Assembly (NCBI GenBank): GCA_051251855.1
Contig: JBPOGI010000003.1
Coordinates: forward strand, 160,001 to 224,000
DNA: 64,000 nt
Source of the DNA: Roseibacillus sp.
Lineage (GTDB): Bacteria; Verrucomicrobiota; Verrucomicrobiia; Verrucomicrobiales; Akkermansiaceae
Direction: 5' to 3'
Numbering within the stretch: the first letter of the stretch is position 1; each line of letters begins with the position of its first letter. The notes below the pieces were generated by a model, which was not told the DNA's origin, ran no database searches, and worked only from the letters and a program-made list of their open reading frames with translations. This document shows, one piece after another, positions 37,615 to 59,140 of the stretch. The position numbers and the translations under genes were made by a program.

Positions 37615-38844
37615 TTAGGTGGGCGAGGGTTCAAAAGTTTTTAAGAAGTGGGTGAGGATGTTGATGCCAGTGGCGATGTCTTCGGGGGTGGCGTATTCGT
37701 CGGGATGATGAGAGAGGCCGTCGCGGCAACGGACGAAAATCATGCCGATGGGCATGACGGGGGCGAGGACGACACCGTCGTGACCAGCTCCACTGGGGAG
37801 GAGGCGATTGTGTCCGGTGATGGCTGTGAGGGAGTTGAGGAGCTGATTGGTGAGTTTGGGTTCGCAGGGAGTGGCGTCGTTGCCTTGGATGATTTGCCAG
37901 GCGTATTGGAGATTTCTGTCTTTGGTGATGCGGGTGAATTCGGCTTCGATGTCGGCTTCGGCTTGATGCCGGACGTCGTCGTTGGGGTGCCGAATGTCGA
38001 TGGTGAAGGTGACCTCTTGGGGAATGCTGTTAGAGACGTTGGGCTGAACTTGAACTTGGCCGACGGTGGCGACGAGGGAGTCGGTTTGGCGGGCGATGTT
38101 CTCGATGGCGAGGATGGCTTCGGCGCTCCCAGTGAGGGCATCGCTGCGCAGGTTCATGGGGGTGGTGCCAGCGTGGTCGGCATGTCCGGTGAAGGTGATG
38201 CGCAAGCGGGTTTGACCCATGATGCTGGTGACAATGCAGGCGGGCTCGTTGGCTTCTTCGAGGATGCGGCCTTGCTCGATGTGAAGTTCGACGTAGCCGA
38301 GGGTTTCGCTTGGGGCGTAGTGAAAGACTTCGGCTTGGTCGTGCCAGCCGAGGGTGGCGAGGACGAAGGCGAGGGATTGGCCTTTGGCATCTTCGCGGTT
38401 GAGGGTGCCGTGGTCGAGTTCGCCGATGATGCTGCGGCTGCCGAGGTAGGTGGTCTGGAAGCGGACGCCTTCTTCGTCGGAGAAGCCGAGAACGTGAACG
38501 GGGAAAGGGAGGGTGATGTTTTGTTCGGCGAGGATTTCGAGGGCGGCAAGGGAACTGACGACGCCGAGGGGGCCATCGTATTTTCCCGCGTTGATGACGG
38601 TGTCGATGTGGGAGCCGAGGAGAAGGGGTGGGGCCTCGGGATTGCTGCCGGGAAGGATGCCGCGCACGGTGCCGTCCTTGGCGTGGGCGGTTTCCATGCC
38701 GAGCTTTTCCATCCAATGGATGACGGAGGCTGCGGCTCGGAGATTGGAGCGGGAGAGGAAGGTGCGGACGAGGTGGTGCGGGTCGTCGGAGAGTTGTCCG
38801 AGTTCTTCGATACGCTCGACGGCGGTTTGGTGCGGAGTGGGCAT
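37615..38844 (-). CDS. allC: Allantoate amidohydrolase (M20 family)
   Basis: GSHIDTV..GKYDG.LG, DEEG.RF, ELHIEQG, HAGTTPM, SGAGHD and SHHP.E motifs; purine-cluster context. Confidence 0.88.
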   Translation of the reverse strand: MPTPHQTAVERIEELGQLSDDPHHLVRTFLSRSNLRAAASVIHWMEKLGMETAHAKDGTVRGILPGSNPEAPPLLLGSHIDTVINAGKYDGPLGVVSSLAALEILAEQNITLPFPVHVLGFSDEEGVRFQTTYLGSRSIIGELDHGTLNREDAKGQSLAFVLATLGWHDQAEVFHYAPSETLGYVELHIEQGRILEEANEPACIVTSIMGQTRLRITFTGHADHAGTTPMNLRSDALTGSAEAILAIENIARQTDSLVATVGQVQVQPNVSNSIPQEVTFTIDIRHPNDDVRHQAEADIEAEFTRITKDRNLQYAWQIIQGNDATPCEPKLTNQLLNSLTAITGHNRLLPSGAGHDGVVLAPVMPIGMIFVRCRDGLSHHPDEYATPEDIATGINILTHFLKTFEPSPT

Positions 38845-38861
38845 TCAGGTTTTGTGATGAA

Positions 38862-39188
38862 TTAGCTGCCGCGGTAGGTGGAGTAGGAGAAGGGTGAACA
38901 GAGGAGGGGGACGTGGTAGGATTGGTTGGCTTCGGTTTTGAAGTCGATTTGGATGACTTCGAGAAAGGGGGAGTCGATGCCGAGTGCACGGAAGTAGTCT
39001 CCAATGGAGAAGAGGAGGCGATAGCTTCCGGCGGGTGGGTCGGTGAGGAGGGGCTCGTCGCAGCGGCCGTCATCGTTGGTAGTGGTGTCGACGATAAGCT
39101 CGTTGGCGGCATTGAAGAGCTGGATACGAACGCCTTGGGCGGGTTTGCCGTGGGCGGTGTCGAGGACGTGGGTGCTGACTTTCTCCAT
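38862..39188 (-). CDS. uraH: 5-hydroxyisourate hydrolase
   Basis: STHVLD, TN.DGR, YHVPLL and C-terminal YRGS. Confidence 0.95.
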   Translation of the reverse strand: MEKVSTHVLDTAHGKPAQGVRIQLFNAANELIVDTTTNDDGRCDEPLLTDPPAGSYRLLFSIGDYFRALGIDSPFLEVIQIDFKTEANQSYHVPLLCSPFSYSTYRGS

Positions 39189-39378
39189 ACAAACATTTCA
39201 GCAGATGGCGGGCCGAACCGCAAGAAAGGGGTTTTCGGGCGAAGGGCAGTTGAACGTGAGGTGGGCGTTGGATAGTATTTTTCTCTTCATTTGGCTTCTG
39301 GCCTGCTAGACTCTCAACATGGAATTTTGGAGAATTGCGGGGGAAGTGGAGTCGTCGTTGCCGAGGGGCAAGGCGCTA

Positions 39379-40479
39379 GTGAAGGCTTTGGACTTTAAGC
39401 GGCTGCCGAAGGTGTTGTTGCATGAGCATTTGGATGGTGGGGTGAGACCGCAGACGGTGATCGATTTGGCGAAGGAGCAAGGTTACGAGGATTTGCCGAC
39501 GACCGATGCGGGGGAGTTGGCGGATTGGTTTCATCGCGGGGCGCAGCGGGGAAATTTGCCAGAGTATTTGGAGGGATTCGCACATACTATTGCGGTGATG
39601 CAGTCACGGGATGGGCTGGCGCGAGTGGCGAAAGAGTTCTTGGAGGATATGAAGAACGATGGCGTGGTTTACGCCGAGATTCGGTTTGCGCCGGTGTTTC
39701 ACACGGGCGGAGGGTTGACTCTTGATGAGGTGATGGCGGCGGTGTTGGAGGGATTGCGTGAGGGCGAGAAAGAGTTTGGGGTTTCTTGGGGGCTGATTGT
39801 TTGTGCGATGCGCAACTTTAAGGATTCGGAGGAGATGGCGGAGCTGGCAATTAAGTGGCGTGATGAGGGGGTGGTTGGTTTTGACCTTGCGGGTGAGGAA
39901 GCGGGGTATCCGCCGAAGGACCACATTCCAGCCTTTCAGGCCGTGCAGCGGGCAAACTTTGCGATTACGATTCATGCGGGGGAAGCTTTTGGGCCGGAGT
40001 CCATTTGGCAGGCTTTGCAGTTTTGTGGGGCGCATCGATTGGGGCATGGCACGCGATTGATGGAGGATATTGAGGTGAAGGAAGACGGTTCGTTGGAGAT
40101 GGGGCGGTTGGCGAGATTCGTGCTCGATCAGCGGGTGCCGTTAGAGATGTGTCTTTCGAGTAATGTGGATACAGGGGCTTGTCCTTCGATTGCGGAGCAC
40201 CCTTTTCCGGTTCTCTTTCGATCAGGGTTTCGGGTGTTTCTGAATACCGATGACCGTCTGATGAGTCGGACTGAAATGTCGCGTGAATTCGAAATTGCGA
40301 CGGAGGCCTATGATATGACCATTGCCGAGCTGGAGAAAATGACGATGAGTGCGGCGAAGAGTGCTTTTGCTTCCCATGAGGAGCGGGTGCGTCTGATGCA
40401 GCGCGTACTCATTCCTGGTTATGCAGCGCTTACTGCGGAGTTGGTGGCTGACGTTTTGAAAAAGAGAACGTCGGATTAA
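39379..40479 (+). CDS. add: Adenosine deaminase family protein
   Basis: LPKV.LH.HLDG, GFDLAG.E, TIHAGE, RLGHG and NTDD motifs. Start uncertain (39319 or GTG 39379). Confidence 0.88.
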   Translation: MKALDFKRLPKVLLHEHLDGGVRPQTVIDLAKEQGYEDLPTTDAGELADWFHRGAQRGNLPEYLEGFAHTIAVMQSRDGLARVAKEFLEDMKNDGVVYAEIRFAPVFHTGGGLTLDEVMAAVLEGLREGEKEFGVSWGLIVCAMRNFKDSEEMAELAIKWRDEGVVGFDLAGEEAGYPPKDHIPAFQAVQRANFAITIHAGEAFGPESIWQALQFCGAHRLGHGTRLMEDIEVKEDGSLEMGRLARFVLDQRVPLEMCLSSNVDTGACPSIAEHPFPVLFRSGFRVFLNTDDRLMSRTEMSREFEIATEAYDMTIAELEKMTMSAAKSAFASHEERVRLMQRVLIPGYAALTAELVADVLKKRTSD

Positions 40480-40484
40480 TTTAA

Positions 40485-40703
40485 GGACACCTCCGGCAAC
40501 CCGAGTTTCCACGCGGACTGAAGTTTGAGTTGAAAACTTGCGGTTGCGCCGAATGACTCAGCAGGTCCGCCCGGTGGGCCGCTTCGCCTTTTTCCTCAAG
40601 GCTTCGTTGCTCATCGAGCGAGGATGTTCATCCACGTCCGATTCGCGCCTTGCCTTGAGAAAAAATGCTCGCGTCGTGAAAACCCAGATTACCGGAGGTG
40701 CCC
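40485..40703. mobile_element. MITE-like element A
   Basis: Imperfect TIRs GGACACCTCCGGCAACCCGAGTTTCCACG / CGTGAAAACCCAGATTACCGGAGGTGCCC, flanked by TTAA on both sides; no ORF. Confidence 0.75.
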
Positions 40704-41225
40704 TTAAGAAAAGGAGAGGTCTGGCACTTTTTCTTCAATACGAAGTTGAGCAATGAGGTGAATTTGGCGAAGAGCTTCTTTGAGTTCAACTTCGCGAGAG
40801 TTTTGCACGCGAGTAGCAAAGGCGGCGAGGACTTTAGGGCGGGTGCTGAGCTTGGCGCAGATGATAAAGGGGAAGTCGAACTTGGCGAGGTAGCTGGCGT
40901 TGAGATCGGCGAATTGTTGGTATTCCTCGTCGCTGAGGCGGTCGAGGCCGAGGCCGGCTTGTTCGGCGGTGGACTCGGAAGTGAGTTTGCCGGCGCGGGC
41001 GAGTTTGCCTCCGAGGTCGGGGTGAGCGCAAATGAGGGTGAGTTTTTCTTCGTCGGTGGCGGCCTCGACGATGGACTTCATAAGGATGATGAGGTCGTCG
41101 CGAGTGGCGAAGGGTTGCTGCGCGAAGGCGGCTTCGGCGACCCAAGGAGAGTGTTCGTAAATGGAGCCCAGCAGGTCGATGAACTCGGGCTTGGTCATTT
41201 GGTTGAGATTTGAGAGAGTGGCCAC
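40704..41225 (-). CDS. uraD: OHCU decarboxylase
   Basis: YEHSPWVA, AHPDL, S..EQ..GL and N..Y..KF.FPFIIC motifs. Confidence 0.93.
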   Translation of the reverse strand: MATLSNLNQMTKPEFIDLLGSIYEHSPWVAEAAFAQQPFATRDDLIILMKSIVEAATDEEKLTLICAHPDLGGKLARAGKLTSESTAEQAGLGLDRLSDEEYQQFADLNASYLAKFDFPFIICAKLSTRPKVLAAFATRVQNSREVELKEALRQIHLIAQLRIEEKVPDLSFS

Positions 41226-41267
41226 GCGACGATAGAGAATGAAAATGATCGGTTTAGAAAGCAATCA

Positions 41268-42056
41268 ATGAGTGAAGAGAAGTCAGGGGCGATAGAGGTT
41301 TGGGAAGAAGTGCAGCGGCTGAAGGCGGCGGGTCTTGCAGGAGTGGTGGTGACGGTGGCGGCGGTGCGGGGGAGTGTGCCAACGGAGGCGGGTGCGAAAA
41401 TTTTGGTGAACGAGGCGGGTTTGATTGCGGGAACGGTGGGAGGAGGAAAGGTGGAGGCTCAGGCGGTGAGCGAGGCTCAGAGGTTGATGGGAAAGGGTGA
41501 GGGTTGTGAGTTGGTGACTTGGAATTTGCAGCGGGATGTGGGGATGACTTGTGGGGGCGAGATGACGTTATTGTTTGAGGCTTTTGGGGGTGAAGAAGGG
41601 TGGCATGTGGTGGTCTTTGGGGCGGGTCACGTTTCGCAGGCGGTGGTTGGCTTGTTGGCGACCTTGTCCTGTCGGGTGGATGTGGTTGATGAGCGAGAGG
41701 AGTGGCTGCAAGGGGTGACGAAGCGGGGGAATGTGGTGACGCACTTGGTGGAGCGATTTGAGGAGGGGGTGGGTTTGGTGAGGGAGGATTCGTTTGCGCT
41801 TTCGATCACCAAGGGGCATTCGGCGGATCGACCGGTTTTGAAGGAGCTGTTGTTGAGGGAGAAGGCCTTGCCGTTCGTGGGGGTGATTGGGAGTGCCTCG
41901 AAGAGGGCGGTGTTGATGAGGGAATTGAGGGAGGATGGGGTGGCGGAGGAGAGGTTGGGTACGTTGATTTGTCCGTTGGGGTTGCCGATTGGGAATAATG
42001 AGCCGGCGGAAATTGCGGTGAGTATTGTGGCGCAGTTGTTGGAGGTGCGGGGTTGA
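41268..42056 (+). CDS. xdhC: Xanthine dehydrogenase accessory protein
   Basis: GTVGGG..E, GMTCGG, FGAGHV, IGSASK and P.EIAVSI.AQL motifs. Confidence 0.9.
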   Translation: MSEEKSGAIEVWEEVQRLKAAGLAGVVVTVAAVRGSVPTEAGAKILVNEAGLIAGTVGGGKVEAQAVSEAQRLMGKGEGCELVTWNLQRDVGMTCGGEMTLLFEAFGGEEGWHVVVFGAGHVSQAVVGLLATLSCRVDVVDEREEWLQGVTKRGNVVTHLVERFEEGVGLVREDSFALSITKGHSADRPVLKELLLREKALPFVGVIGSASKRAVLMRELREDGVAEERLGTLICPLGLPIGNNEPAEIAVSIVAQLLEVRG

Positions 42057-42071
42057 TGTGCAAGGGGCGTC

Positions 42072-42181
42072 ACTGGGAGCGCTGGTCTTTGACCGGCCCT
42101 AACGGTTGATGGCAGAGGTTCGGAGGGGTCGGTTCGGTAGAATCGGTTCGGTGGGGCCGGTCGCAGACCAGCGCTCCCAGT
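42072..42181. repeat. REP-like inverted pair between convergent genes
   Basis: ACTGGGAGCGCTGGTCTTTGACCGGCCC ... GGGCCGGTCGCAGACCAGCGCTCCCAGT. Confidence 0.8.
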
Positions 42182-42182
42182 C

Positions 42183-43388
42183 CTACCGGAGGGTTTTTAG
42201 GTAAGCGACGAGGTTGTTGACTTGTTCGTCTGTGAGGACGGTGGCGTAGGGGGGCATGGCGGGGGCGTAGCCTTTGACCACTTTGGTGGTGGAGTTGAGG
42301 ATGCTTTCGCGGAGATAGGCTTCGTCGGCGACGAGGGAGGTGCCGTCTTCGAATTCGCGTTTGGTGCCGAGGAGTCCGTGAAGGCTGGGGGCGATGGTTC
42401 CGGCTTGAGGGAGGTGGCAGGCGGTGCAGCCGGTGGAGATGAAGACTTGCTCGCCGGCTTGGGCTTCGGGGGAGAGGGAGGCGGTTTCGGCGGCTTTGCC
42501 TTGCGTGACTAAGAGGGTGATGATGCCTGCGCCGACGATGAAGGTGAGGCCAAGGAGCTCTTTCCAGCGAGGGAGAGAGTGGTAGCAGTTCATCAGATGT
42601 TTGATGAGGGCGAGAGTGATGATGGCGACAGCGGCGATGGCGATGTTGTTGGGGCTTCCGTAGGTGGAGGGGAAATGGGCGCTGAGCATCAGGAAGATAA
42701 CAGGGAAAGTAATGTAGTGGTTGTGGGTGGAGCGGATTTTGGCCTGTTTGCCAAGTTTAAGGTCGTGGGGTTTTCCTTCTAACAGGGCATCCATCATCTT
42801 CTTCTGGTTGACCATGATGTGGAAGAAGACGTTGGCGCTCATCATGCTGCCCATCATGGCTCCCATCTGGAGATAGACGGCGCGGCCATTGAAGACGGTG
42901 TTGAGCCAGAGGCCGTAGACGATGAGTCCGGCGAAGGAGATGAGGAGGCCGAGGCGCTCTTTGTTCCTAACAGGGCTGCGCCAGAGGAGGTCGTAGAAGA
43001 GCCAGCCGCCGACGAGGGAGGCGAAGCTGATGACGGCTCCCATGTAGCCGGGGAGGTCGGTTTTGGCAGGGTCGAGAAGGAGAGTGGCGCCTCGAGTGTA
43101 GAAGAGGGAGACGAGGAGAATGAAGCCGCTGAGAAAGGTGGTGTAGGATTGCCACTTGAAGATGTGGAGGCGTTGGGGGATTTCCTTGGGGTCGATGATG
43201 CGCTTTTGTAGAAGGAAGATGCCGCCACCGTGCAGCATGTTCATGGAGCCAAGCGATTCATCGCCGTCTTCCTTCTCGTCGCGGCGTAAATTGAGCTCGA
43301 ACCAGGTGAAGAGGAGAGAGTTGCCAATCCACATGATGGCGGCCACGACGTGGATCATGCGGAAAGTGATGTTGAAGAATTCGATCAC
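42183..43388 (-). CDS. puuD: Membrane urate hydroxylase with C-terminal cytochrome c
   Basis: R..HV...MWIG.S, HGGG, FKWQSYTT..SG, M.ANVF, RS.HN.Y.T.PV.F.M.S.H and CTACH motifs. Confidence 0.88.
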   Translation of the reverse strand: MIEFFNITFRMIHVVAAIMWIGNSLLFTWFELNLRRDEKEDGDESLGSMNMLHGGGIFLLQKRIIDPKEIPQRLHIFKWQSYTTFLSGFILLVSLFYTRGATLLLDPAKTDLPGYMGAVISFASLVGGWLFYDLLWRSPVRNKERLGLLISFAGLIVYGLWLNTVFNGRAVYLQMGAMMGSMMSANVFFHIMVNQKKMMDALLEGKPHDLKLGKQAKIRSTHNHYITFPVIFLMLSAHFPSTYGSPNNIAIAAVAIITLALIKHLMNCYHSLPRWKELLGLTFIVGAGIITLLVTQGKAAETASLSPEAQAGEQVFISTGCTACHLPQAGTIAPSLHGLLGTKREFEDGTSLVADEAYLRESILNSTTKVVKGYAPAMPPYATVLTDEQVNNLVAYLKTLR

Positions 43389-48272: not shown

Positions 48273-49346
48273 ATGGCTAAGAAATTATCGTTCGAATTTG
48301 AGGGGACAGAGGTCCTAGGTGGTGAGCGGGAGACGGTAACTCTTCCGATCGGTCGCTTTCTGACAGGTCAAGACTTTGGTCTTCCTGTGCATGTGATTCA
48401 GGGGAAGAGGGAAGGGCCTGTGCTTTTGCTGACGGGTGCTGTTCATGGTGACGAGCTCAATGGAATTGAGATTGTGCGTCGCATGATTGCAGGCAATTCC
48501 CTTCGTTCACTGCGGGGGACGGTGTTGGCAATTCCGGTGGTAAACATTCCTGCCTTTGGAGCGCGGTCTCGGTATTTGCCTGATCGGCGTGACTTGAATC
48601 GTCTCTTTCCTGGCGGTGAAGGTGGTTCAGTTGGTGGACGAATCGCTCGTGCTCTGACGGAGTCCGTGATTCCACGAGCAGACGTCGTGATTGACCTTCA
48701 CACGGGGGCTGTGAATCGACCGAACTTGCCACAGCTCAGGATTACGCGGGGCGATAAGCGTTCACAGGAGTTAGCCCAAGTTTTTGCGGCCCCGGCGACC
48801 TTACTCGCTGGCGAGAGGGAAGGGTCTTTTCGGACGGAATGTCGGAAGGCTGGGAAGCCTTGTCTCCTTTTTGAGGGTGGAGAAGCAATGAGGTTGGATG
48901 CGGGTTCAATTAAGTATGGGCTTCGTGGAGTGATGCGTGTGATGCGGGATTTGGGGATGCTGCCAAAGACAAAGGGGATGACTCAGGCGATTGAGACTGT
49001 CTTTTGTCCACGGAGTGGGTGGGAGCGTTCTCCTTCGGGTGGGCTTTTCACTCCTTTGATGGCGTTGGGCCGAGCGGTCCACGTAGGAGATGTGCTGGGA
49101 TTCGTAGCTGATGTCTCGGGAGGTCCCGAACAATCCGTTGTTGCGACAAGAAGTGGTATTTTGATTGGGCGAACCAATGAGGGGGTGGCGGATGAAGGTG
49201 ATGCTCTCTTTCATATTGCCGAGGCTGGAGATCCGGCGGGAGCGGAAGAGCAGATCACGGAGGGAGGAGAGGTCCTTCCAGACACTTGGCAGGAGGCAGA
49301 GGACGTTCCGGTTCCTTATGATCCAGTGAGTGACACGGTGGTGTGA
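48273..49346 (+). CDS. Succinylglutamate desuccinylase/aspartoacylase family protein (rimK-associated type)
   Basis: HGDELNG, RYLPDRRDLNR.FPG, IDLHTG and FEGGE motifs. Confidence 0.88.
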   Translation: MAKKLSFEFEGTEVLGGERETVTLPIGRFLTGQDFGLPVHVIQGKREGPVLLLTGAVHGDELNGIEIVRRMIAGNSLRSLRGTVLAIPVVNIPAFGARSRYLPDRRDLNRLFPGGEGGSVGGRIARALTESVIPRADVVIDLHTGAVNRPNLPQLRITRGDKRSQELAQVFAAPATLLAGEREGSFRTECRKAGKPCLLFEGGEAMRLDAGSIKYGLRGVMRVMRDLGMLPKTKGMTQAIETVFCPRSGWERSPSGGLFTPLMALGRAVHVGDVLGFVADVSGGPEQSVVATRSGILIGRTNEGVADEGDALFHIAEAGDPAGAEEQITEGGEVLPDTWQEAEDVPVPYDPVSDTVV

Positions 49347-49392: not shown

Positions 49393-49427
49393 AAAAAAAC
49401 CGAGCCCGCAATGAGCGGAACTCGGTT
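49393..49427 (-). terminator. Rho-independent terminator, probably bidirectional
   Basis: AAAAAAACCGAGCCCGC-AATGA-GCGGAACTCGGTTT between convergent genes. Confidence 0.7.
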
Positions 49428-49446
49428 TGGTGAAATCTATCCGAGG

Positions 49447-50106
49447 CTACTTCTCCAGAAGTGCCTTCACTGCTTCTTGGGAGCTAGCGGAAAGTTTGGT
49501 GACCGGATAGGCGACAGTCTTCCCATCAGGCATCTGGAATGTGACGGTAGCGTCATCGGCTTTCACGATGGCTGCGGTGATGGTCTTGCCATCAGCATTG
49601 GTCCAAGCTTGTTTTTCGGCAAGGAGGGAGGTTTCTTCAGCTTCTTCCTCAGCGTTCTGAGAAGAGCCGACGACGTCCATTTCCTTAATTTCTTTCTTCA
49701 GATCGCGAGCAGCCTTTCGTGTGTCGGAAAGGTCCTTGTAGCTGAAGCCTTTTAATCCTTTGGAGAGGTCGGCGGTGGTGACCATGACCATGGGAATAGT
49801 GTTTCCCATATGAGTTTCGCGGCGAATCTCGGCAACGGGCTTAGGAGCGTTGCCAATTCCATCTTTCTTTGAGTCGATGAAGACGATGGGTCCTGTGGAC
49901 TTAAATGCTTTGAAGGCTTCCGAACTGGTAGCCAAACAAGGTCCTCATGTTGTGCCTGGATCGGTGTAGACGAAGATGATGGGTTCGCTTTTTTCGAGAG
50001 CCTCTGCCTTTGCTTCTTCGAGCTTGTCGAGAGTGTAAACGTGGCGCGGAATATCTAAGGCGAGCGCTGGAACAAATCCTAAAATGAGGAGGGCTAAGAC
50101 TTTCAT
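49447..50106 (-). CDS. Putative selenoprotein: secreted thioredoxin-fold protein (U-G-P-C) with C-terminal SHD1-like domain, 219 aa
   Basis: ATG 50106 gives MKVLALLILGFVPALA-LDIPRHVYTLDKLEEAKAEALEKSEPIIFVYTDPGTT-TGA-GPC, in frame with ORF 49447..49935; TIPMV cis-Pro-like motif; WTNADGKTITA...KLS..SQ tail. Confidence 0.8.
49906..49947 (-). promoter_or_regulatory. Candidate bacterial SECIS element
   Basis: UGA, then 18 nt, then an apical loop AGUUC (G at position 2) closed by GCU-A-CC / GG-A-AGC, with a lower stem UGUUUG / CAAAGCA. Folded by eye. Confidence 0.55.
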
Positions 50107-50235: not shown

Positions 50236-50541
50236 ATGAAAACGACCATTAACTGTACAAAGCATCTAGACGAGAATCACACCAGCGTTTGGGAGTCTAC
50301 TCGTGACCTCATTGAGCGCAAACACAAGCATTTGCGCAATGTCCACCCTGATCTCTTTAAGGCCGAATTGCATCTTCGTGCATTTAGCCGGCAGACGGAA
50401 GTTCATCTCTTGGTCCATGATACTCGTCATCGTTTGATTGAATCTCATGCGAGTGGTGAGAACTTGGATAGGTGTATTGCGCTCGCTTTCAAGAGAGCAG
50501 AAGTGCAGTTGGCAAAGCCGAAGCATTTGCAGAATCACTAG
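50236..50541 (+). CDS. Small protein, HPF/RaiA-like fold
   Basis: Size and the pattern ..SHASGENLDRCI..AF.R.E.QL.K resemble ribosome hibernation factors; divergent. Confidence 0.45.
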   Translation: MKTTINCTKHLDENHTSVWESTRDLIERKHKHLRNVHPDLFKAELHLRAFSRQTEVHLLVHDTRHRLIESHASGENLDRCIALAFKRAEVQLAKPKHLQNH

Positions 50542-50885: not shown

Positions 50886-52259
50886 TTAGAGCCCGAGAAA
50901 GAGCTTGGCGGTAGTGAAATAAATTAGCATGCCGGATACGTCCACGATGGTTGTGATTGCGGGTGCTGCGATGACGGCGGGGTCGAGTTTGACGGCACGG
51001 GCGCCGATGGGAAGAAGGGCACCGATGAGGGTCGATGCAATGACCTGAATGGTCAAAGCGAGGGAGACGGCGAGAGTGAAGTGAGGAAGGCTGACGCCGG
51101 TGATGGCGTCGGGGAGGAGGAGAGGGAGGAGAACGAGACAGGTGATGGCAAGAGCCGCACCGAGGATGAGCCCTTGAAAGATGCCGAGGCGGAGTTCCTT
51201 CCAAGCGACTTGTAGGGAGTCCTTGGACTCCAATTCCCCGAGAGACATGGCTCGGATGACCATGGTGGAGGCTTGGCCACCCGTGTTGCCGCCGGTGGCG
51301 ATGACCATGGGGAGAAAGAGGGCGAGGAGGAAGACGGAGTCGAGAACGGGTTCGAACTGAATCATCACGTAGCCAGAAGCGATGGCGAGAAAGCCCAACC
51401 CAAGCAGCCAGCCGACGCGGCGTTTGAGGTGAATGGCAATACGGGTACGAAGGTAGCTCTCTTCGGATTGCTCGCCGGCGATACCGGCCTGCTTCTCCAT
51501 ATCTTCGGTGGACTCTTCTTCGATAATTTCCATCGCGTCGTCGTACGTGATGGCTCCGAGGAGACGGTTGCTTTCATCGACAACGGGGAGGGCGAGGAGA
51601 TCGTATTTGCGAACCATGGTGGCTGCTTCTTCTTGATCGGCGCTGGCTAGGATGGTCTCGTTGACTTCGAACATGATATCGCGCACCGGTGTTCCCCATG
51701 AGGAGAAGGCAAGGTCACGCAAGCGGATGAACCCAATGGGACGTTCGCGTTCATCGGTGACGAAGATTCGAGAGAGGGTTTCGGCGGAGTCTTGTAGGAC
51801 TTTGAGTTCTTCGAGAGCCTGTTTGACAGTGAGGTGGGCGGGGACGCGGCCGATGCTGGTGGTCATCCAACCGCCAGCAGTTTCTTCGTCGTAGTTGAGA
51901 AGGGCTCGGGTGAGTTCTTCCTCTTCGGAGGAAAGAAGATCGAGCAGGCGCGTGCGCGTCTCCTCGGAGACGTCTTGGAGAATGTCGACGCGGTCGTCGT
52001 CGGTGAGGGCATTGAGGAGCTCGCGCTGTTGGGCGGGCTTGTAGTGGCTGATGGCTTCCTCGCGGAGAGAGTCTGGGAGTTCAGCTAAGACGTCGGCAAA
52101 GGTGGTGGGGGAGAGGGTGTGGACGATGAAGTCGCGCTCTTCGTCTTCTTCGAGGTCGGCATAGAAGTTCGCGAGGTCGGCATAATGAAGTTCTTCAGCA
52201 AGGGCGAGAATCGCAGAGCCGTCACGAGACTTGAGAGCGGGAGCGAGACGGTTGGGCAC
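50886..52259 (-). CDS. mgtE: Magnesium transporter
   Basis: TAGG.MT, CBS pair, YDL.ALPVVD, GGNTG.Q and DPA...P.ITTI.D motifs. Confidence 0.93.
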   Translation of the reverse strand: MPNRLAPALKSRDGSAILALAEELHYADLANFYADLEEDEERDFIVHTLSPTTFADVLAELPDSLREEAISHYKPAQQRELLNALTDDDRVDILQDVSEETRTRLLDLLSSEEEELTRALLNYDEETAGGWMTTSIGRVPAHLTVKQALEELKVLQDSAETLSRIFVTDERERPIGFIRLRDLAFSSWGTPVRDIMFEVNETILASADQEEAATMVRKYDLLALPVVDESNRLLGAITYDDAMEIIEEESTEDMEKQAGIAGEQSEESYLRTRIAIHLKRRVGWLLGLGFLAIASGYVMIQFEPVLDSVFLLALFLPMVIATGGNTGGQASTMVIRAMSLGELESKDSLQVAWKELRLGIFQGLILGAALAITCLVLLPLLLPDAITGVSLPHFTLAVSLALTIQVIASTLIGALLPIGARAVKLDPAVIAAPAITTIVDVSGMLIYFTTAKLFLGL

Positions 52260-56857: not shown

Positions 56858-58774
56858 TTACTGAGCCAAGTAACGGAAGTCGCCGTCGCGACGGGTGAGG
56901 CCGTTGGAATCGAGGCGTTCTAGGAGGGGCATGGTGATGCGTCGGGAAGTGCCGAGGAGTTGGCGAAGGTCGGAAGCTGTCGCGGATTTATACTCGGTGA
57001 GGTGCTCTTCGATTTTGTCGGAGGCCAGATCGAAGGAGGCGAGGTCGAGGACGGTTTTTTCGTCGAGAGAAATGACTTGGCCTACGCGGATGAGAAAGGC
57101 GAGGGCGCGTTGGGCAGCGGGGGTGGGGGCGAGTTCTTTCTTGTTGGGAGCGTTGAGTTGTTCGGCGGCGAGGGTTTTGAGAATGGCGTCGGCTTCTTTT
57201 TTGAGCTCGGGGGGGATGTCGGTTTGGTGAGAGAGGGCTTTGAGGTATTCGCCTTCGGCCTGAATGTCTTTCTCGCGGAGAGACTCTAAGAGAGAGTCGA
57301 AGAGGTCGTGGTGAGCGAACTCGCGGGCGAAGCTATTGCGAAGAGATTGGAGCTGGATGCCGGGGAGGTCGGGGTTGGTTCGGTGGTATTCGGCGACGGC
57401 TTCGGTGGCGCGATTGAGAATGTCGGCCCACCAATCGGCGTCGATATGGCCTTGCGCGAGGCGGGCGATTTTCTTTTGAGAAGCGAGTTCTTTAAGGGCG
57501 TTTTTGAAAGACCGGTTAGAGAAGGGAAAGTCCTGGGGGGCAGGTTTTTCGGGGAGGTAGCGGTGCTTGTGGACGAGGTAGGTGAGGAGTGCGTCGGGGG
57601 ATTCCTTTTTGGAAAGTTCACGCAATTGGAGTTGATGATCTTCTTTGCCAAGTTGACGACGAGAGCCGTGTGCATCGAGGACGCGGGCACCGGCAAGGGT
57701 GGCTTCGCCTGACCAATCGCGGATGACAATGCGGTCGTTGGCGAAGACGAAGAGGGTATCGTCGAGCCGGATTTGGGCGAGGCCGCTCTGACCGGGGAGG
57801 AGTTCGCCATCTAACAAACGCACGCGACCGTTGACGCGTCCGGAGCCGTAGTGGAGGCGAATTTTTTGGTTGTTCTTCATGGGGCGCTCGCTGCCTTGTT
57901 GGCCGGGGATGGGACGTGGAAGGCGATCGAGAAGGACGTCGATGGTATTGGAGGGAGTTCCGGCTTCGGGGAGGGTGATGATTTGGCCGCGCTTTACGCC
58001 GCGTTCTTTGCGGGAATCGAGAGCGACGTCGGGAATGTTGACGGCGGTGCGCATCCCGGGTCGGGCGGTCTCGATGCTTTGGCTATGATTCTGGATGGCA
58101 CGCACGTGGGCGGGGAGACCTTGGGGTTGCAGGATGACTTTGTCGCCGGTGGCCAGAGACCCGCGGGAAAGGGTGCCGGTGATGATGGTGCCCATTCCTT
58201 TGACGGTGAAGGCGCGGTCAACAGGCAGGCAGGGGACGGCGAGGTCTTCGGAGGGGGTGGTTTCGGCGAGGGCTTGTGCAATGGCTGTGCGGAGTTCATC
58301 AAGGCCTTCGCCGGTGTGGGAGGAGACGGGGAGGATAGGGCTTTCTTCGAAGGGGCTGCCAGCAAGGGAGTCGCGCACGAATTCGAGCGAAAACTCGGGG
58401 TCTTCGACGATATCGATTTTGGTCATGGCCACGATGGCGCGCTTCATGCCGAGGTAGGAGAGGATGTGAAGGTGTTCCTCGGACTGGGGCATCCAGCCGT
58501 CGTCAGCGGCGACAACAATGAGGGCAAGGTCGAGGGCCCCAACGCCAGCGACCATGTTATTGACGAAGTCGGCATGGCCGGGGACGTCTACGACGCCAAC
58601 TTGAAGGTCTTGACCATCGGGGCCGTTAAGGGAGAGATGGGCAAAGCCGAGCTCGATGGTAACTCCACGCTTTTTCTCCTCGGGGAGGCGGTCGGGGTTG
58701 GTGCCGGTGAGCGCTTGGACAAGGGAGGATTTCCCGTGGTCGATGTGGCCGGCGGTTCCGAGGATGAAATTCAT
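56858..58774 (-). CDS. selB: Selenocysteine-specific translation elongation factor
   Basis: [24 protein letters not shown] and DVPGH..F..NM.AG motifs; C-terminal winged helix ...SRR...PLLE.LD..G.T.R.GD.R. Confidence 0.93.
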
Positions 58775-58872
58775 TGAGAACGAACGGTCCGCGAATAGGG
58801 CTCTGGGATCAAGCGGGATGTGAGGGAGACGGGGTGGTATTTTTCGATGCTGAGCCGCGGAGGGAGTGCTGA

Positions 58873-59140
58873 TACCATTCTCACAGTTAAATCGATGTAA
58901 TGGTTTTATTTTTGGTCCTAAGAAAAGCGCTGCGCGAGCACTCAGAAAGTCGGGCCAAGTTTCCCAATACCCGCGTTGCTTGCTGCTCCCCCCCGGTCGC
59001 ACCCTTCGGGTTGCCTTGGCAGGCAAGCTATCTCGCTCCGCTCGTTTCTTGGTCAGAGTGCTAGCACTCCTCCCTCGGCGCGCCTTGGTCTTGGAAAGCC
59101 TGACTCCGACCATTACACCAATTTAACTGCTCAAATGGTA
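58873..59140. mobile_element. MITE-like element C
   Basis: TIRs TACCATTCTCACAGTTAAATCGATGTAATGGT / ACCATTACACCAATTTAACTGCTCAAATGGTA, flanked by a TGA direct repeat. Confidence 0.78.

Follow-up and report, generated by a model that had tools for sequence, protein, structure and literature searches.

Is the TGA at codon 54 of a short minus-strand gene of Roseibacillus sp. a stop, or is it read as selenocysteine (Sec) in the active site of a thioredoxin-like protein, and what would such a protein do? The window, which is the whole stretch of DNA that was analysed (64,000 nt), contains both the gene and selB (Table 1).

The reading frame and its TGA codon

The frame opens at ATG 50106, which is the first possible start because an in-frame TAG lies five codons upstream, and runs to the TAG at 49449-49447 with a single in-frame TGA between, in the context Thr-Thr-TGA-Gly-Pro-Cys. 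An earlier sequence-only reading had proposed this frame, with TGA at codon 54 and then Gly-Pro-Cys, and a re-reading of the sequence agreed. It had also held that gene callers truncate the gene, and they do: the ORF list is limited to the 162-aa 3′ part (49447-49935), and 24 of the 26 proteins found in a database search with the full protein, including this gene's own record, begin downstream of the motif. The remaining two were a protein that ends just before the motif and a full-length Cys form. The named database members of the family are annotated "hypothetical protein."

Table 1 Features of the gene and its surroundings, in window coordinates
Feature	Position	Strand	Basis
Whole gene, 219 aa with TGA codon 54 as predicted selenocysteine	49447..50106	(-)	Frame read; full-length conservation in relatives
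Signal-peptide-like N-terminus, residues 1-16 (Met-Lys, hydrophobic core, Ala-x-Ala)	50059..50106	(-)	By eye
Thioredoxin-fold domain, about residues 18-144, DsbH/Thioredoxin_7-like	49675..50055	(-)	AlphaFold2, Foldseek, VIA-align
TGA codon 54, in frame, at the first position of U-G-P-C; predicted to be selenocysteine	49945..49947	(-)	Homolog comparison
Cys57, predicted resolving cysteine	49936..49938	(-)	Cys 52, Ser 15, Ala 4 in 71 TGA forms
SECIS hairpin (from sequence comparison), stem of 6-7 pairs, 5-nt loop AGUUC with G second	49915..49933	(-)	Folding, covariation
Pro105 (Ile-Pro), at the thioredoxin cis-proline place	49792..49794	(-)	Invariant in 20/20 aligned proteins
Acidic low-confidence linker, about residues 145-162, length variable in homologs	49621..49674	(-)	pLDDT <50 at 150-158
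SHD1-like small beta-barrel, residues 163-219	49450..49620	(-)	Predicted fold
Terminator-like hairpin and T run, 3′ of the stop	49393..49428	(-)	By eye; scan called the inner part
selB, Sec-specific elongation factor	56858..59113	(-)	Pfam GTP_EFTU, SelB barrel, two SelB wings

The TGA is not an artefact of assembly, since the identical codon stands in a contig from a run of a different study, which spans 49881-50031 with one difference, at 49951. A promoter scan at the gene found nothing, the terminator scan found 1 terminator versus 1.2 expected in shuffled sequence, and no RNA dataset with this gene was listed among the sequencing runs searched.

Selenocysteine machinery, homologs and the hairpin

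SelA and SelD, the latter with an in-frame TGA of its own, are encoded in the genome (4.96 Mb, 95% complete), which also has a tRNA called as tRNA-SeC, its sole tRNA with a TCA anticodon. With selB, all four genes (selA, selB, selC, and selD) are therefore present, including the three that the sequence-only reading had asked to be confirmed in the genome. The distance to selB, which it had put at about 7 kb, was 6.75 kb when measured to the end of selB at 56858; selB is not co-transcribed with the gene, and its true start probably lies inside the ORF of Table 1.

Matches to an N-terminal-domain profile were obtained in 94 of 301 genomes of the order and among 549 representatives in a 50% identity library; with a stricter cut-off, 24 of 401 genomes of the phylum were matched, and no TGA occurred in these last matches outside the gene's own genome. 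The loci compared came from the relatives, from the order-wide profile matches, and from 60 regions hand-picked from the latter, and thus are not a random sample. They held 105 distinct homolog matches, and 97 of these carried Cys or TGA at position 54, as the sequence-only reading had anticipated, and were scored (71 TGA forms and 26 Cys forms). The 8 matches dropped were 7 with neither U nor C, or with a gap, at the site and 1 with a frame break. The TGA forms comprised 52 UxxC, 15 UxxS, and 4 UxxA motifs, and the Cys forms comprised 19 CxxC, 4 CxxA, and 3 CxxT motifs, which leaves 19/71 and 7/26, respectively, with no second Cys. The first motif residue was lost too in 5 matches, and the fold was kept in some homologs without both residues.

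selB was searched in 80 genomes, and the gene's own genome was added for the tallies. Among genomes with a TGA form, 47 had selB and 2 had no selB match but had selA, so that all 49 examined had either; 4 further TGA-form genomes lie outside this tally. Among Cys-only genomes, 23 of 25 had no selB match and 2 had selB. Because the genomes are related and the loci were hand-picked, these Sec/Cys counts and the hairpin counts below are inflated and are not independent. A quick tree with the site masked (126 columns) showed at least four Sec/Cys changes, which were not orientable as gains or losses. The Rfam tRNA-Sec model was rejected as a marker of the Sec trait because it did not discriminate near the cut-off (48.6-51.2 bits in 3 Cys-form genomes without selA/selB matches versus 60.5-63.9 bits in Sec genomes).

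Several minor variants were seen among the homologs. Short CxxA single-cysteine homologs with no SHD1-like domain occurred in genus g3, which gave no selB match (L088-L090, L129, L144-L153), and adjoining tandem copies of the family occurred in some genomes (L048, L050, L051, L094, L098). Two copies were apparently broken, one by a frame break at the motif (L020, G008:C67) and one by an extra TAG (G086:C33), and another had two TGAs three codons apart (L111, G086:C31). Four proteins of 222-252 aa may be longer fused forms, on weak evidence. A search of the ESM Atlas with a Cys homolog gave a lead only: all matches were under 0.9 and fell in Verrucomicrobiota thioredoxin-family clusters.

Judged from the homologous sequences, the hairpin after the TGA codon is a SECIS. 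The sequence-only reading had it start 18 nt after the UGA, which holds for the AGUUC loop (49926-49922) and fails for the stem, which begins earlier. A single hairpin of this kind is weak: it was not significant on its own (z −1.2 over 68 nt in single-sequence folding), and the same hairpin rule was satisfied by 6,015 of the 175,662 TGA triplets of the genome (3.4%), so that it becomes convincing only across homologs. An Rfam search gave no relevant match to the hairpin and two matches at chance level only. Across homologs, a hairpin (at least 5 of 6 stem positions paired) followed 69/71 TGA forms versus 0/26 Cys forms, with offsets of 18 and 21 nt that were picked from the TGA forms and then used for both groups. 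At these offsets, loop positions 2 and 3 were G and U in 71/71 TGA forms. Random synonymous recoding of the same proteins gave 12.8 expected hairpins (for this gene alone, P about 0.04), and the loop Ser was coded by AGT in 64/64 TGA forms versus 76/662 other Ser codons of those domains. In the covariation set (46 of 50 locus rows with 18-nt spacing, near-copies left out), five of the six pairs changed on both sides, and 90.9% of cells were paired versus 20-57% in slid controls; RNAalifold, unprompted, recovered the same stem from 17 rows. The SECIS and covariation check proposed with the sequence-only reading thus found a hairpin with compensatory changes that is conserved in TGA forms only, and none of the three conditions that it had named as refuting (another residue at the site, no conserved hairpin, no selA or selC) applied.

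Bacterial SECIS elements are described in the accessible text of PMC13188914 by a loop of 3-9 nt with G among its first two nucleotides, a stem of 4-16 bp, and a distance of 16-37 nt from the UGA; the hairpin agrees with these constraints (5-nt loop, G second, 18 nt). A genome-wide SECIS scan placed this TGA 5th among the 64 that passed out of 40,320 examined, under a rule that was derived from this gene's family and that missed selD and the C10 paralog; most of the passing rows look like shadow frames. One Cys form (L079, G083), in a genome without selA/selB matches, nevertheless has an AGUUC loop with a stem at −9.4 kcal/mol, possibly a SECIS left over after a Sec-to-Cys change.

Taken together, the comparative data make it almost certain that codon 54 encodes Sec at the active site of a thioredoxin-like protein. 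If the TGA were instead a nonsense mutation or a sequencing error, with the gene broken or its halves being separate genes, the database proteins that begin downstream of the site (24/26), the one that ends just before it, and the nonsignificance of the lone hairpin would be accounted for. This explanation is already contradicted, however, by a TGA common to 71 genes across several families with both halves conserved in frame, by a covarying hairpin tied to the TGA, by the tie to the Sec machinery, and by the independent contig, and we consider it very improbable. A genome-wide code in which TGA is read as Trp or Gly is more improbable still. Trp does stand at the Sec site in 5 of the top 150 library representatives (P0036, P0044, P0047, P0058, and P0060), most likely through gene callers applying another code, but TGA otherwise is an ordinary stop that ends 287/1,407 long ORFs of the genome, which already contradicts such a code. 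Also against it are the identity of the only TCA-anticodon tRNA as tRNA-SeC and the alignment of Cys with the site in genomes without selB. Even jointly, a broken gene and another code would be highly improbable.

Predicted domains and proposed function

The N-terminus is without a lipoprotein Cys, and a hydrophobic stretch was found at the same N-terminal place in 97/97 homologs by a crude count; the signal peptide would very likely send the chain through the general secretion pathway. AlphaFold2, run with a 20-row alignment, predicted two domains and a disordered linker (pLDDT 88). The thioredoxin fold named in the sequence-only reading was supported by this model and by structure matches. 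The top Foldseek matches of residues 18-144 were thioredoxins, and VIA-align gave Z 10.4 for 3ira, Z 9.6 for 7tkv, and Z 8.7 for DsbH 2ju5; 3ira, of the Thioredox_DsbH type, was the best, yet several others were tied with it within 1 Z unit. A helix precedes strand 1 at the N-terminal end of the domain, and the UxxC motif sits after strand 1, where the first core helix begins, as in a thioredoxin fold. Judging from the fold, the invariant Pro105, at the place of the cis-proline before strand 3, would have cis geometry.

The SHD1-like domain of the same reading stood in part. The predicted fold of residues 163-219 matched yeast SHD1 2hbp (Z 8.1, rmsd 1.9 A, 57 of 66 residues; Foldseek TM 0.70 by target), and the domain profile gave E 0.027 against 2hbp, but the domain alone scored 13.3 bits (E 0.078) with Pfam SHD1 PF03983, under the cut-off of 23.7 bits, which 5 of 40 homolog representatives passed. 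Nor is the domain specific to this protein. It was detected in 54/71 TGA forms and 9/26 Cys forms; of the 17 TGA forms in which it was not detected, 12 are short (151-171 aa), and in the remaining 5 the domain may have been missed or the locus cut. It is also found in 18 proteins of the gene's own genome, at either end; a crude rule flagged a signal-like start in 11 of these, and most of the rest show one by eye. Since it occurs in so many proteins and is optional in the family, the barrel is best described as a generic module of exported proteins.

The family apparently is uncatalogued and of a familiar chemical class, and members may be filed in BSepDB as general thioredoxins. Among the selenoproteins of bacteria, those with a UxxC thioredoxin fold are the most frequent type according to the accessible text of PMC13188914, and its Table 1, with 119 selenoprotein families, has no SHD1 or Verrucomicrobia entry in its accessible part. 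The UxxC thioredoxin-like families given there (PF00085, PF13098, thiol-disulfide isomerase-like, TlpA, Redoxin, DsbG-like, SaoT, TsoX, and HUIPC) have in common with the present family the fold, the UxxC motif, a SelB-type SECIS directly after the UGA, and Cys homologs in Sec-less genomes, whereas a signal peptide with an SHD1-like tail is absent from the architectures listed in that part of the source. The GOS "Trx-like 1-3" proteins, as presented in the accessible text of PMC2398784, are of the same kind and were compared by description. Excerpts of PMC12013277, PMC13326102, PMC13745706, PMC9312934, PMC4807772, and PMC2398784, besides PMC13188914, made up the selenoprotein literature compared. 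In the literature searched, largely outside subscription journals, no publication that deals with this family or with SHD1 domains in bacteria came up.

No Pfam or NCBIfam model (June 2026) claimed the thioredoxin domain in P0001, 20 aligned members, or 40 representatives. PF00085, PF13098, PF13899, PF08534, NF041199, NF041057, NF040730, NF045500, NF047660, and NF041383 stayed below cut-off, and weak Thioredoxin_7 matches, all under cut-off, were seen in 4/40 Cys representatives. The Trx7/PDZ selenoprotein NF041199 likewise couples a Thioredoxin_7-type domain to a small module for binding, but with CxxU and PDZ there versus UxxC and an SHD1-like domain here (best E 0.07, in 1/20 members). The best structural matches came from the Thioredox_DsbH (DUF255), Thioredoxin_7, and Chlamydia DsbH group (3ira, 7tkv, 2ju5; Z 8.7-10.4), which differs in its 13-14% identity, in a Z tied with ordinary thioredoxins, in being Cys-based, and in having no SHD1-like domain. 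DsbH is a periplasmic reductant. The present protein may belong with the DsbD-dependent envelope reductases of the DsbH, TlpA, or CcmG type, which are exported and reduced by DsbD; what was observed here is a signal-peptide-like start and a DsbD gene in the genome. The SHD1 domain of yeast Sla1 (PF03983, 2hbp) has the fold of residues 163-219 at 16% identity; it is a cytoplasmic adaptor for NPFxD cargo (accessible text of PMC2199253), whereas the SHD1-like domain here is on bacterial proteins predicted to be exported.

On balance, we slightly favor a chain of events in which the gene yields an exported Sec enzyme that acts as a DsbD-fed disulfide reductase or isomerase of the envelope. SelB would bind the hairpin 18 nt past the UGA and deliver Sec-tRNA, so that codon 54 would be read as Sec. 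In the envelope, Sec54 would attack a disulfide or an oxidised cysteine of a client protein, Cys57 would resolve the mixed bond to give a selenenylsulfide, and DsbD would pass electrons from the cytoplasm and regenerate the enzyme; by analogy with thioredoxin chemistry, these three steps have about an even chance of being correct. The SHD1-like barrel, on its flexible linker, would be non-catalytic and common to many exported proteins of the lineage, and it probably sets location or partner, not chemistry. The selenium-dependent exported oxidoreductase with an interaction module that the sequence-only reading had described is supported overall, with "oxidoreductase" and "interaction module" as the parts that we infer.

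The Gly-Pro dipeptide of the motif is that of reducing thioredoxins. The genome encodes a 705-aa DsbD that comprises an N-terminal, a membrane, and a Thioredoxin_7 domain. Searches of the genome turned up neither DsbB nor VKOR, an absence that is unproven because the genome is only 95% complete. A strict dithiol mechanism leaves unexplained those forms, about a quarter of the family, that are without a second Cys.

These forms bear on a less probable reading, which we would hold only tentatively, that the protein is a single-selenol selenoprotein: an envelope enzyme of a peroxidase-like or repair kind, with peroxides or single oxidised cysteines as the substrates that it reduces, with Cys57 dispensable and with recycling by a small thiol or another protein. 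UxxS and UxxA among the TGA forms and CxxA and CxxT among the Cys forms agree with it, as does the structure of the bacillithiol-using BrxA, which was second by fold (Z 9.7). Cys57 is kept, however, in this gene and in 5/5 close congeneric orthologs examined, UxxC is the majority motif (52/71), and no peroxiredoxin or glutathione-peroxidase family was matched in Pfam or NCBIfam. It is unlikely, to a further degree, that the same selenoprotein works as a DsbA-like oxidase or binds a metal or ligand without redox turnover. Its predicted exported location would suit such a role in an organism in which no route of disulfide formation was found, and some homologs keep the fold without both motif residues; but the predicted model is without the DsbA helical insertion, no DsbB or VKOR was found for reoxidation, and the best fold matches are of the thioredoxin/DsbH type.

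Gene neighborhoods, compared at 58 loci of ~3-6 kb, were shared only in close kin and gave no functional partner; with no conserved neighbors beyond close relatives, no client and no link to DsbD is indicated. In the window, the gene is followed by a convergent AstE/AspA-family hydrolase (48273-49346) and has a divergent HPF/S30EA-like protein (50236-50541) and an MgtE transporter (50886-52259) on its other side; synteny of these neighbors was seen only within close kin. An apparent purine/allantoin breakdown run, named by eye from the ORF list, lies at 37615-43388 (amidohydrolase, HIU hydrolase-like, deaminase, OHCU decarboxylase-like, XdhC-like, and urate-hydroxylase-like with cytochrome c).

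Wider context and other candidates

The family enlarges the selenoproteome of bacteria by a sizeable group, in a lineage unmentioned in the accessible parts of the selenoprotein reviews, and its public records mostly are truncated or have Trp at the active site. Its matched Sec and Cys forms, with the hairpin in the Sec forms only, provide a clean set for SECIS models and a set for testing what selenium adds outside the cytoplasm, and the family offers a handle on the bacterial SHD1-like domain. A bolder proposal, which we regard as rather doubtful, is that the gene belongs to a large exported selenoproteome that Verrucomicrobiales have and the catalogues missed, that the SHD1-like barrel serves the whole lineage as a tag for sorting or docking, and that the UxxS and UxxA branches use single-selenol chemistry. 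If so, the barrel would bring together, at a single structure of the envelope, several selenium redox enzymes that are unrelated (this family and the TlpA-type and Thioredoxin_8-type proteins) as well as further exported proteins, and the single-selenol chemistry of those branches would be one undescribed so far for this fold in bacteria.

Two paralogs were observed. The first (G000:C6:484046-484744, minus strand; L155:1547-2245) has two in-frame TGAs five codons apart and a UxxS-type motif, keeps the hairpin after the second TGA, 33 nt from the first, and lies on a long branch; no distinct ortholog was found in 8 congeners, and it may be either a decaying copy or a double-Sec form. The second (G000:C10:209625-210269, plus strand; L162) has UxxC and a hairpin spacing of 21 nt.

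Candidates from other families were also seen. TlpA-like proteins at L028, L037, L023, and L030 have the same C-terminal SHD1-like domain and include both UxxC and CxxC forms. Two exported-looking Thioredoxin_8-type proteins (G000:C11:42056-42760 and C1 near 1584111, both plus strand; L157 and L158) carry an N-terminal SHD1-like domain, UxxC, and SECIS-like hairpins, and belong to another thioredoxin family, in which the domain order is reversed. An exported-looking protein with two HMA-like repeats has an in-frame TGA and a hairpin in each repeat (G000:C6 near 711917 and 712145, plus strand; L156:465-1037). Further selenoprotein candidates were an FG-GAP/ASPIC-UnbV protein (G000:C6:417091, plus strand), a BCP-type peroxiredoxin (G000:C8:303832, plus strand), a DUF3179 protein that lies ~1.2 kb from the two-TGA paralog (G000:C6:486626, minus strand), a TlpA-like protein (G000:C10:234380, minus strand), and, by motif only, a formate-dehydrogenase-like protein with UHxP (G000:C1:1403243, plus strand).
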